A DNA stretch of 41,688 bases. It comes from a virus. Position numbers and translations under genes: made by a program. The notes below the pieces were generated by a model. The model was not told the DNA's origin. It did not search any database and saw only the letters and a list, made by a program, of their open reading frames with translations. Below are positions 13,918 through 16,156 of the stretch, one piece after another; the stretch's first letter is position 1, and each line of letters starts with the position of its first letter. The stretch lies in UHGV virus genome UHGV-0112358; one strand, 5' to 3'.

Positions 13918-14102
13918 ACGCCACAATTCAAACGATACCAGAGCTTCTTATCCAGACACGAGGCAATCAGACCGAAGTGGCGAGGATGCTTTCCTGTGCA
14001 AGAGGAACAGTGCTCAAGTACAACCGAGACAGCAAAGGCGAGCGTCACGTAATAGTTAACGGCGTCCTGATGGTCAAACAAGGCAAGAGGGGAAGACGAT
14101 GA
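13914..14102 (+). CDS. ninH: NinH
   Basis: ...YGNQTEVARMLSCARGTVLKYNRD... resembles recalled lambda NinH. Confidence 0.65.
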   Translation: MNATIQTIPELLIQTRGNQTEVARMLSCARGTVLKYNRDSKGERHVIVNGVLMVKQGKRGRR

Positions 14103-14722
14103 GACTCGAAAGCGTAGCTAAATTTCATTCGCCAAAAAGCCCGATGATGAGCGACTCACCACGGGCTACGGCTTCTGACTCTCTTTCCGGTACTGATGTG
14201 ATGGCTGCTATGGGGATGGCGCAATCACAAGCCGGATTCGGAATGGCTGCATTCTGTGGTAAGCACGAACTCAGCCAGAACGACAAACAAAAGGCTATCA
14301 ACTATCTGATGCAATTTGCACACAAGGTATCGGGGAAATACCGTGGCGTGGCAAAGCTTGAAGGAAATACTAAGGCAAAGGTACTGCAAGTGCTCGCAAC
14401 ATTCGCTTATGCGGATTATTGCCGTAGTGCCGCGACGCCGGGCGCAAGATGCAGAGATTGCCACGGTACAGGCCGTGCGGTTGATATAGCCAAAACGGAG
14501 CAGTGGGGGAGAGTTGTTGAGAAAGAGTGCGGAAGATGCAAAGGTGTCGGCTATTCAAGAATGCCAGCAAGCGCCGCATATCGCGCTGTAACGATGCTAA
14601 TCCCAAACCTTACTCAACCCACCTGGTCACGCACTGTTAAGCCGCTGTATGACGCTCTGGTGGTGCAATGCCACAAAGAAGAGTCAATTGCAGACAACAT
14701 TTTGAATGCGGTCACACGTTAG
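14099..14722 (+). CDS. Q: late-gene antiterminator Q
   Basis: 207 aa, MRLESVAKFHSPKSPMMSDSP... with zinc-finger CRDCHGTG...CGRCKG; near-identical to recalled lambda Q. Confidence 0.9.
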   Translation: MRLESVAKFHSPKSPMMSDSPRATASDSLSGTDVMAAMGMAQSQAGFGMAAFCGKHELSQNDKQKAINYLMQFAHKVSGKYRGVAKLEGNTKAKVLQVLATFAYADYCRSAATPGARCRDCHGTGRAVDIAKTEQWGRVVEKECGRCKGVGYSRMPASAAYRAVTMLIPNLTQPTWSRTVKPLYDALVVQCHKEESIADNILNAVTR

Positions 14723-14764: not shown

Positions 14765-14793
14765 TTGACTTTTTGAATAAAGTTGGGTAAATT
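14765..14793 (+). promoter_or_regulatory. late promoter pR' with qut region
   Basis: -35 TTGACT (14765-14770), 17-nt spacer, -10 TAAATT (14788-14793), lambda-like. Confidence 0.6.
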
Positions 14794-14829
14794 TGACTCA
14801 ACGATGGATAAATGCACTCGTTAAATAAA

Positions 14830-14858
14830 GCCCTGAGTTAATAGCTCGGGGCTTTTTG
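14830..14858 (+). terminator. tR'-like terminator of short pR' leader RNA
   Basis: GCCCTGAG-ttaatag-CTCGGGGC followed by TTTTT about 35 nt after predicted start. Confidence 0.6.
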
Positions 14859-15832
14859 CGTTTGCACAACAGGTAAGAGCATTCTCCCTTATGGGGCTTG
14901 GCTTAAATGCACCGAGTGCTCTTATCGTTGTGGCAGCACAACGATAGTTTTCGTCAGAGTTGGCGACTTTGCGGGTTTTTAGAAACTGACCACAAAGATA
15001 AATGCAAACGATGATTTGATGTTGATGGCGGCCTAAGAAACCAAAGTCACGGGGTCTTCCGATTCCCCGCTACCAAATTCGGCGCAGTGGCCCGCTGTGA
15101 TTAATAATGGGCACCCAATAATGAGAGCGTTGGACAGTGGCGATGAGATTTCGCAACCCAGGAGCCAATAGATCGGGGATAGTGCGCATAATACCGATTG
15201 AGGTGAGTGCTGGAATAAGCATCGGGAGTCATGACCCAACATGATGCGGGAAAGCCAGCCACCGAGAGACCCGGCAGGGTAAACCGGCCTTCCGCTTGGT
15301 TATCAAGCAATAATAGCGCTCTCATTCGTGGGTAACAACGGGCATGTCGCCTTAGTAAATCCCTCAAGGGTGCGACGCATAGACCGGTACTAGCGTCGCC
15401 GTTAGCTCCACGAAACGGAGCGCACAACAGGTAAGAGTATTTGTAGAGTTCGACTCTCTACCGTGGGATTTTTTCCGCGATGCGAGCCATAAATGCTCTT
15501 TCCGTTGTGCTGAATTAAGCGAATGCCGGAAGCAGAACCGGATCACCAAATGCGTACAGGCGTCATCGCCGCCCAGCAACAGCACAACCCAAACTTAGCC
15601 GTAGCCACTGGCTATCCTGAACTCATCAGTGATAGTTATGCTGCGGCCTTCTACGCATGACCTTCGTGAAAGCGGGTGGCAAGAGGCTGCGCTAACAACC
15701 TCCTGCCGTTTTGCCCGTGCATATCGGTCACGAACAAATCTGATTACTAAACACAGTAGCCTGGATTTGTTCTATCAGTAATCGACCTTATTCCTAATTA
15801 AATAGAGCAAATCCCCTTATTGGGGGTAAGAC

Positions 15833-16156
15833 ATGAAGATGCCAGAAAAACATGACCTGTTAGCCGCCATTCTCGCGGCAAAGGAACAAGGCATCGGGGC
15901 AATCCTTGCGTTTGCAATGGCGTACCTTCGCGGCAGATATAATGGCGGTGCGTTTACAAAAACAGTAATCGACGCAACGATGTGCGCCATTATCGCCTGG
16001 TTCATTCGTGACCTTCTCGACTTAGCCGGACTAAGTAGCAATCTCGCTTATATAACGAGCGTGTTCATCGGCTACATCGGTACTGACTCGATTGGTTCGC
16101 TTATCAAACGCTTCGCTGCTAAAAAAGCCGGAGTAGAAGATGGTGGAAATCAATAA
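15833..16156 (+). CDS. S: holin S (dual-start MKM)
   Basis: [34 protein letters not shown]... near-identical to recalled lambda S. Confidence 0.9.

Follow-up and report, generated by a model that had tools for sequence, protein, structure and literature searches.

What occupies the long interval between the Q and S genes in the lambda-like late region of virus genome UHGV-0112358? In this stretch of 41,688 nucleotides, hereafter the window, 1110 bp separate the end of Q (14722) from the start of S (15833), versus 676 bp in lambda. A first-pass annotation made from the sequence alone had rightly remarked on the length of this spacer and offered three options for the duplicated hairpin element within it: a structured RNA cleaved out of the late transcript, a remnant of a tRNA or moron insertion, or a small non-autonomous element with target duplication. 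Two decisive features were missed, namely a tag-like reading frame and a 41-nt antisense match to host transfer-messenger RNA (tmRNA). Together with SmpB, tmRNA forms the main bacterial ribosome-rescue system, which is also a drug target. We favour, at a probability of about 0.5, the reading in which generic junction hairpins delimit a cassette for a phage RNA that would mask the tag template of host tmRNA and offer its own.

The antisense match, here called the arm, forms the 5′ end of a conserved core running from 14943 to ~15122. Against nt 65-107 of Escherichia coli tmRNA (the ssrA gene, fetched and confirmed as an annotated tmRNA), the arm affords 35 Watson-Crick pairs and a predicted duplex energy of −39.5 kcal/mol, compared with a mean of −20.2 (standard deviation 3.4, best −33.7) for 1000 dinucleotide shuffles, or a z-score of −5.6. 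This site is the best on the whole of ssrA. The footprint covers the 3′ half of pseudoknot 1 (PK1), the linker with A86, the resume codon at G90 and tag codons 1-6. Within it, the paired blocks are CCGCAAA and UAAAAA for the 3′ half of PK1, AGUCGC for positions −4 to +2, including A86 and the resume codon, and GACGAAAACUA for tag codons 3-6. Pairing of the arm with the tag region of its own RNA reaches −15.5, and neither the pseudoknot region (z-score 0.13) nor the 3′ extension (z-score −0.76) pairs unusually with tmRNA. Equivalent regions of unrelated tmRNAs gave −16 to −23 kcal/mol, versus −38.9 for a Pectobacterium-type tmRNA.

The same complementarity recurs across the family that we examined, comprising 82 loci with 59 unique cores, 22 distinct nucleotide versions of the tag and 33 unique arms. 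Arms of the main class, found in P1, lambdoids, Bas78, CS01, IME11, Ag3 and Magnus, all pair with E. coli tmRNA at −33 to −43 kcal/mol. Among the 33 unique arms the conserved footprint comprises tmRNA nt 68-80, 86-91 and 93-105, and the paired blocks are kept while the spacer between blocks ranges from 2 to 11 nt. This 5′ region, GUUUUCGUC ... GCGACUUUGCGG. UUUUUAG, has the highest sequence conservation in the family and shows no covariation. The arm of Erwinia phage Faunus carries GAAG where E. coli phages have UAG, and is predicted to pair at −36.4 with a tmRNA of the AAC UUC type versus −31.1 with that of E. coli (AAC UAC). A 14-mer scan of viral contigs for the predicted Faunus target returned chance matches alone, none in a tmRNA context; a gapped-pattern scan returned one UUC-type tmRNA that matches it. 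Overall, this extended and statistically unusual complementarity, specific to enterobacterial tmRNA, is of the kind expected of an antisense RNA, and the phage RNA probably acts through pairing with tmRNA.

Downstream of the arm, an A-rich linker leads into a frame that resembles the tag-coding region of a tmRNA. Resume context, frame and stop codon thus repeat, in a version not complementary to the arm, the elements that the arm would mask in the host RNA. The motif TAAAT at the end of the linker is invariant in the family alignment and agrees with the tmRNA model consensus aUAAAuGC. From the in-frame TAG upstream to the GCA resume codon, the sequence is free of ATG, GTG and TTG. The frame has 10 codons in every one of the family sequences, which encode ANDDLMLMAA (the window), ANDDLMMVAA (P1), ANDDVVLMAA, ANDDQFLAVA, ANEEMYLAVA (Vibrio phage pYD38-A, with a TAG stop), ANDSEMRMVA (Faunus) and ANDDYKLAAA (Rosenbergiella), among other variants. 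The first four codons were set by the search pattern for most sequences. Among the 22 nucleotide versions, Ala codon 9 is written as GCG, GCC, GCT and GCA and codon 10 as three GCN codons, and there is further synonymous usage for Leu (CTT, CTG, TTG) and Val (GTT, GTA, GTC). Substitutions are most frequent at third codon positions, then first, then second, with hydrophobic residues kept, and the remaining two reading frames over the tag show no conservation.

The stop codon is set in the loop of a small hairpin whose stem, by inspection of the alignment, varies as GGC/GCC, UAGCC/GGCUA, CCUAA/UUAGG and CGC/GCG across the family. SspB binds the AANDENY motif of the ssrA tag, of which the phage tags lack the N6-Y7 part. 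The tags end in ...[LMV][AV]A, resembling ClpXP degrons, in which the last two positions are enriched in Ala and preceded by a hydrophobic residue (Beardslee and Schmitz). A frame that has neither start codon nor Shine-Dalgarno sequence, is conserved as a peptide and ends in a hydrophobic residue and Ala-Ala is what would be expected of a tmRNA tag. The description of the segment as free of open reading frames therefore holds for protein genes and overlooks this conserved frame. A protein-coding reading of the segment was dropped: four open reading frames, including the longest of 108 amino acids, gave zero Pfam matches.

Two consecutive H-type pseudoknots follow the tag, and their covariation was counted on a 29-sequence alignment (A2). 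Overall, 92.9% of cells are paired, and sliding the partners lowers this to 38-55%; compensatory changes on both sides are seen in 13 of 18 pairs, and the observed score was reached by 0 of 500 shuffles. In pseudoknot a, helix 1 is 99.3% paired with three compensatory pairs, and helix 2 is 94.8% paired with compensation in four of four. For pseudoknot b the corresponding values are 93.8% and two compensatory pairs in helix 3, and 81.9% and four in helix 4, the latter (S2) occurring as the length variants GCCC/GGGC, GCCCUGA/UCAGGGC and GGCGGGAG/CUCCCGCC. By these comparative measures the core is a real, conserved structured RNA. Two further helices were considered and rejected, namely a pseudoknot 1 upstream of the tag (AGUUU/AAACU, GUCA/UGAC), in which single changes are uncompensated, and a long-range helix GGCGAC/GUCGCC closing the long form, which is not kept in loci L084 or L107. 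Minimum free energy folding of whole long forms was uninformative because of the pseudoknots.

In the window the core is followed by an extension that defines a long form. Its first part folds with a z-score of −2.8 and bears at the stem tip a 191-nt insert (15128-15318). Among 5426 E. coli genomes two have this insert, and no phage record does; the tips of other long forms, 50-70 nt in length, are unrelated, and one of them has a T-arm-like GGCAGGTTCGATTCCTGAC. Directly 5′ of junction hairpin 2, the hairpin at 15405-15421 has a strictly conserved 7-nt loop, (A/U)CGAAAC (ACGAAAC in the window), on a stem that covaries among long forms (GCUCC/GGAGC, GCCAC/GUGGC, AUUCC/GGAGU).

A BLAST search with the segment found the core in ~480 phage records, which span at least six phage groups. 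Among siphoviruses these include Drexlerviridae-like (CS01) and unclassified phages (Bas77-81, C1); others are Schitoviridae (IME11), Chaseviridae (Faunus), Vibrio phage pYD38-A, and Ackermannviridae, including Ag3, Magnus and many Salmonella phages of ~157 kb. The records further take in P1, P7, RCS47 and lambdoid prophages. Of 5426 complete E. coli genomes, 670 (~12%) have the core, mostly on P1-like plasmids, and so do prophages of Erwinia, Pantoea, Rosenbergiella and Rouxiella. Public records never annotate the core as RNA; it is left blank or lies under short hypothetical coding sequences. Examples of the latter, often on the opposite strand, are Bas78_0056/0057, Faunus gp29 and PJ16_048 (locus L002 1455-1981; L128 1108-1242), and such coding sequences are likely to be annotation artefacts.

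Given the tag-like frame, a self-sufficient tmRNA has to be weighed. ARAGORN called no tmRNA in ~80 family loci and neither a tRNA nor a tmRNA gene in the window (0 of each), and called genuine tmRNAs, including permuted ones, in unrelated control loci. In the window no Rfam family reached its gathering score; the best matches among 4227 families were tmRNA_permuted (RF04321, 22.9-27.3 bits against a threshold of 47) and beta_tmRNA (RF01850, 12.5-17.3 against 84), which span the tag region and the first pseudoknot alone. Hand-built candidates for a tRNA-like domain, comprising a permuted domain inside the hairpin, a CACAAC/GUUGUG acceptor stem and a 3′ end at AGCUCCAC, included none with G3:U70 or CCA, and no cloverleaf with an anticodon arm was found in the window, where a T arm and a closed hairpin at 15443-15479 stand alone. 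A degenerate tRNA-like domain (5′ flank UUCGUC, GACUUUGCG, GAAAC; 3′ end GCAUGU, AGCUCCAC) had seemed by eye to be collinear with E. coli ssrA, and was dropped because the sense-strand similarity of the flanks was not significant by local alignment against shuffles (p 0.18-0.25).

Promoter predictions bear on the same question. In Bas78 and pYD38-A a consensus promoter, TTGACA-16/17-TAGATT, is placed such that the predicted transcript would start right at the arm, and in several prophages the core directly follows a terminator. For these two reasons and because a tRNA-like domain is missing, the element is, judged from its sequence, not a tmRNA. The alternative would be a diverged two-piece or permuted tmRNA that takes its tRNA-like domain from the junction hairpin, with the CACAAC/GUUGUG base serving as acceptor stem and X supplying the T arm, receives CCA after processing and matches the host incidentally. 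It could draw on the permuted type of the best Rfam models, with beta_tmRNA aligning to the tag and the following pseudoknot, on the permuted topology suggested by locus L107 (T arm and closed hairpin between the two hairpin arms, directly upstream of the core) and on the 7-bp hairpin stem, which with the bulged A after it recalls an acceptor stem and its discriminator. We consider it very unlikely, given that ARAGORN recognises permuted tmRNAs in unrelated loci and none in the family, that G3:U70 and CCA are absent and the flanks lack significant similarity to ssrA, that only one of the 41 contexts of the T-arm hairpin is upstream of a core, and that lytic-phage transcripts are predicted to begin at the arm with nothing upstream. 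The 35-bp antisense match would also go unexplained. Separately, genuine circularly permuted tmRNA genes were observed on viral contigs at ~30 other IMG/VR loci plus L012, L014 and L086, with tags ANDDSFTPMALAA and ANDDFAPVDYALAA; they have the 17-mer TAAATGCAAACGATGAT in common with the phage core family. These genes are consistent with the marine phage tmRNAs of PMC9004378.

How might an RNA with an arm against tmRNA and a tag of its own act? In the window it would be transcribed from pR′ within the Q-antiterminated late leader, with the flanking hairpins serving to release or stabilise it, and a discrete core RNA would be expected to start at (GA)UAGUUUUCG. Made late, it would anneal to host tmRNA through the arm and block the host tag template, as synthetic anti-ssrA oligonucleotides do in vitro. 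The 3′ continuation of the RNA would leave the duplex beside PK1 and place the phage resume codon at the position of the host codon, such that ribosomes rescued by host Ala-tmRNA-SmpB could continue translation on the phage frame, thereby adding the phage tag. Host tRNA-like domain and phage message would then constitute a two-piece hybrid tmRNA, with a tag lacking N6-Y7 of AANDENY. We hold the translation of the RNA's own tag frame to be somewhat short of an even bet, and the full scheme, in which the RNA docks on tmRNA, silences the host template and supplies a phage-specified one in trans, to be slightly more tentative again.

The main rival is a pure antisense inhibitor, in which pairing would block or destroy tmRNA (for example through RNase III acting on the 35-bp duplex) and the tmRNA-like part would be an untranslated scaffold or mimic that recruits tmRNA partners. 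The number of pairs, the z-score, the footprint and the specificity fit this scheme equally, as does the missing tRNA-like domain. Precedents also exist: trans-translation is suppressed in vitro by synthetic oligonucleotides with complementarity to tmRNA (PMC3384345), and mycobacteriophage DS6A encodes a tmRNA consisting of the tRNA-like domain only, proposed to inhibit host tmRNA by titrating SmpB (PMC4131195). Inhibition would leave unexplained, however, the constant 10-codon frame, the synonymous Ala, Leu and Val changes with conserved second codon positions and a degron-like end, and the preserved U−5/A−4 resume context; moreover, if rescue were blocked and no other template offered, ribosomes needed by the phage would be trapped. 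Because of the constraint on the tag peptide we favour template swapping and regard pure inhibition as rather unlikely.

Several points weigh against the masking and replacement of the host template. Our confidence in template swapping is limited because it has no precedent and because its support is comparative or thermodynamic throughout; to our knowledge, no natural RNA pairs with tmRNA, and we know of no hybrid tmRNA with a template supplied in trans. The ribosome might not tolerate the replacement of half of PK1 by a 35-bp side arm. With the first four codons fixed by the search pattern, the coding signature rests on codons 5-10, and tracking of host tmRNA by the arm was seen in one case, that of Faunus and the UUC-type tmRNA. 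Arms of the minor class (L013, L120, L033) pair more weakly with E. coli tmRNA, at −20 to −28. Predicted ensembles have arms ~40-50% paired, and in the window an 11-bp hairpin (14922-14947) takes up the arm's first 5 nt. Finally, the proposal does not explain what the long-form extension and the junction hairpins do.

The features of the region are collected in Table 1.

Table 1. Features of the Q-S interval and its surroundings, in coordinates of the window.
Feature	Position	Strand	Details
Q gene	14099-14722		Lambda-like late region
pR′-like late promoter	14765-14793	+	TTGACT-17-TAAATT; consensus scan and alignment with lambda pR′ region
tR′-like intrinsic terminator hairpin	14827-14855	+	13-bp stem, then T run
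Junction hairpin 1 (A1-X1-A1′)	14864-14932	+	CACAAC-A-GGTAAGAGCATT ... AGTGCTCTTATC-GTTGTG; repeat families D2 and D4
Terminator-like hairpin	14922-14947	+	11 bp, TTATCGTTGTG GCAG CACAACGATAG, then TTTTCG; inverted repeat I16
Candidate anti-tmRNA arm	14943-14983	+	41 nt; antisense to E. coli tmRNA nt 107-65
A-rich linker	14984-15003	+	Ends in resume context AUAAAU (14998-15003); U at −5 and A at −4 as E. coli tmRNA U85/A86
tmRNA-type tag frame	15004-15036	+	GCA AAC GAT GAT TTG ATG TTG ATG GCG GCC TAA = ANDDLMLMAA*
Small helix-5-like hairpin	15026-15043	+	Stop codon in loop; UGG/CCA in window; seen by inspection, no formal pair count
Pseudoknot a	15050-15082	+	S1 15050-15054/15065-15069; S2 (loop) 15059-15062/15079-15082
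Pseudoknot b	15083-15112	+	S1 15083-15087/15095-15099; S2 15090-15093/15109-15112
Long-form extension, part 1	15113-15333	+	Stem 15113-15129/15317-15333 (inverted repeat I2), hypervariable tip
Long-form extension, part 2	15372-15421	+	Hairpin 15372-15399; hairpin 15405-15421 (5 bp)
Junction hairpin 2 (A2-X2-A2′)	15422-15510	+	Holds T arm 15443-15461 and closed hairpin CGUGGGA-UUUUUU-CCGCG 15462-15479
Lambda-type late leader up to S start codon	15511-15832	+	Context, outside inserted cassette
S gene	15833-16156		R next

The two junction hairpins were the starting point of the first-pass annotation, and its repeats were recovered where it had placed them, each pair closing a hairpin. The 5′ repeat, GCACAACAGGTAAGAG[C/T]ATT, occupies 14864-14883 and 15422-15441 (20 nt, 95% identical), and the 3′ repeat, TGCTCTT..CGTTGTG, occupies 14917-14932 and 15494-15509 (88% identical); ~0.0002 exact 16-mer repeats would be expected by chance in 1.3 kb. 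Both hairpins are irregular, with fold energies of −31.0 kcal/mol (z-score −5.5) for the first and −38.7 kcal/mol (z-score −6.1) for the second. The T-arm-like hairpin recognised in the second copy, GTAGAG-TTCGACT-CTCTAC at 15443-15461, was likewise confirmed, with homologues showing compensatory stem changes (GAAGAG/CTCTTC, GCAGAG/CTCTGC). The 41 contexts of this module are mostly without a core.

Comparison with other loci reveals a common plan, in which a CACAAC/GUUGUG base, a bulged A and an upper stem GGUAAGAG/CUCUUUCC carry a hypervariable tip that often resembles a decayed tRNA; in variants from L033, L165 and L167 the stem is kept through compensatory change. Such hairpins border many different modules in unrelated phages, with positions downstream of tR′, of tRNA-Thr in P1-like plasmids, of a tRNA-shaped 'domain 3' and of the long-form extension. 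P1 itself has a 94% identical copy of junction hairpin 1 adjoining its tRNA genes, and in P1-like elements (L005, L007, L138, L142 and L150) the T-arm version lies directly 3′ of the tRNA-Thr CCA end. We read the junction hairpins, from their distribution, as generic cassette junctions common to phage tRNA cassettes; they are probably processing sites, and the lambdoid late leader resembles an array of decayed tRNA cassettes. The suggested link to tRNA holds indirectly, through the hairpins, which also flank phage tRNA genes and in one case hold a T arm; the body of the segment resembles tmRNA rather than tRNA. The terminator-like hairpin at 14922-14947, which scores as an intrinsic terminator, overlaps A1′ of junction hairpin 1 as well as the start of the arm, and could either gate arm accessibility or create a need for Q antitermination.

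Two tRNA-like modules were observed nearby in other loci. Domain 3, with conserved GTGGTGAATGCGCAGGCTGATGCGC ... GCCGGAGATCAGCACCGGCCACCAC(A), a closing stem of 7-10 bp, D-like and T-like hairpins and a variable middle, lies downstream of a junction hairpin in unrelated phages (L002 ~1905-2035, L126 ~1440-1590, L129 ~1505-1735). It ends in ...CACCACAGCCA in L009, and a shortened form is present in lambda and in the window (15511-15560). The other, which lies 3′ of the core in L056, has TCCAGGA/TCCTGGA as its acceptor, GGTGGTTCGATTCCTCC as its T arm and an encoded ACCA; ~150 nt interrupt it, and it receives no ARAGORN call.

Alignment with lambda clarifies how the extra DNA is organised. Lambda (L124) has exactly one junction hairpin between tR′ and S, at L124 988-1062, and from the A′ arm (~15494 in the window) onward the two sequences hardly differ; the extra DNA is thus one 558-bp repeat period, comprising hairpin 1 and ~490 bp. 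The 558 bp that the window carries beyond lambda are offset in part by a shorter pR′-tR′ segment. Recombination between junction hairpins would explain the duplication. The hairpin with its 16-mer is thus ordinary leader sequence in lambda, and the spacer between the two copies is not. This spacer had been called GC-rich, which is true only mildly (0.52 for the segment versus 0.46 for the whole window). As in the window, where consensus predictions place the element downstream of pR′ and tR′, the same tR′-like terminator lies 5′ of the core element in many lambdoid loci. Of the three options first proposed, a structured RNA from the late transcript came closest, in view of the covarying pseudoknots and this position.

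The single hairpin of lambda also lends itself to a reading without any trans function, in which the segment would be a cis-acting leader feature or recombination scar, a graveyard of tRNA and tmRNA fragments providing at most processing sites or stabilisers for the S-R-Rz mRNA. The hypervariable, often tRNA-like hairpin tips and the nearly unique 191-nt insert of the window agree with this picture. A scar would decay, however, and the core instead shows compensatory changes and conserved arm blocks, is conserved in compact virulent phages of the unrelated Drexlerviridae, Schitoviridae, Ackermannviridae and Chaseviridae, and sometimes has its own predicted promoter. This reading is therefore scarcely better placed than a self-sufficient tmRNA. 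A small non-autonomous mobile element, inserted in the leader with target duplication, is hardly credible. Direct repeats do flank the extra DNA, and the cassette is found in many unrelated genomes, but the repeat is a whole hairpin of 70-90 nt that is already present once in lambda and borders other modules (tRNAs, domain 3), the core is flanked by a junction hairpin on one side alone in many phages, and the insert has neither terminal inverted repeats nor a transposase.

If the proposed template replacement is right, phages manipulate trans-translation in late infection, the tag template of tmRNA can come in trans, and a natural anti-tmRNA sequence tuned by evolution exists; we know of no description of such a phage counter-measure. 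Hundreds of phage annotations contain a non-coding stretch, left blank or filled with spurious small open reading frames, that would then be explained; they include such textbook phages as P1, lambdoid prophages and T1-like, N4-like and ViI-like phages, in which the element sits unannotated. P1 or an inducible prophage would allow direct and inexpensive experiments in E. coli. Full-text searches, which did not reach ~1.4 million PubMed Central manuscripts or subscription-only papers, returned no description of the phage tags or of a natural anti-tmRNA RNA; the element is thus undescribed in the searched literature, and an earlier description elsewhere may exist.

Among known systems, the closest is tmRNA itself, especially its two-piece and permuted forms (RF04321, RF01850). 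The phage RNA has in common with it a putative GCA resume codon that follows AUAAAU without an initiation signal, a 10-codon tag with an AND(D/E) start and a hydrophobic and Ala-Ala end, a stop codon that by inspection lies in a small hairpin, and pseudoknots directly downstream of the tag. It differs in lacking the G3:U70 acceptor stem, a properly placed T arm and CCA, and in its 5′ arm with antisense complementarity to host tmRNA, a feature not known from any tmRNA. The arm recalls AgvB and AsxR of Stx prophages, phage 'anti-sRNAs' that act in trans as antisense RNAs. These too are prophage RNAs in which a 5′-proximal region pairs with a host non-coding RNA; here, in contrast, the target would be tmRNA, the pairing is far longer (35 bp in three blocks) and a tmRNA-like module is carried as well. 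Synthetic anti-ssrA oligonucleotides, used in cell-free translation and ribosome display, cover the same tag-coding region as the phage arm, whereas the arm is natural, also spans PK1 and the resume codon, and is fused to a tag template and pseudoknots. Finally, phage tmRNAs have been reported from mycobacteriophages, Bacillus phage G and marine phages, and in the form reduced to the tRNA-like domain (PMC4131195, PMC11915505, PMC9004378), with no enterobacterial phage tmRNA genes reported in those surveys (PMC4131195, PMC9004378). Such surveys depend on ARAGORN or Rfam, both of which miss the phage core family. Like the RNA proposed here, these are phage genes acting on trans-translation; they are complete or, as in DS6A, comprise a tRNA-like domain without a tag, whereas the phage core is a tag domain without a tRNA-like domain, joined to an antisense arm.

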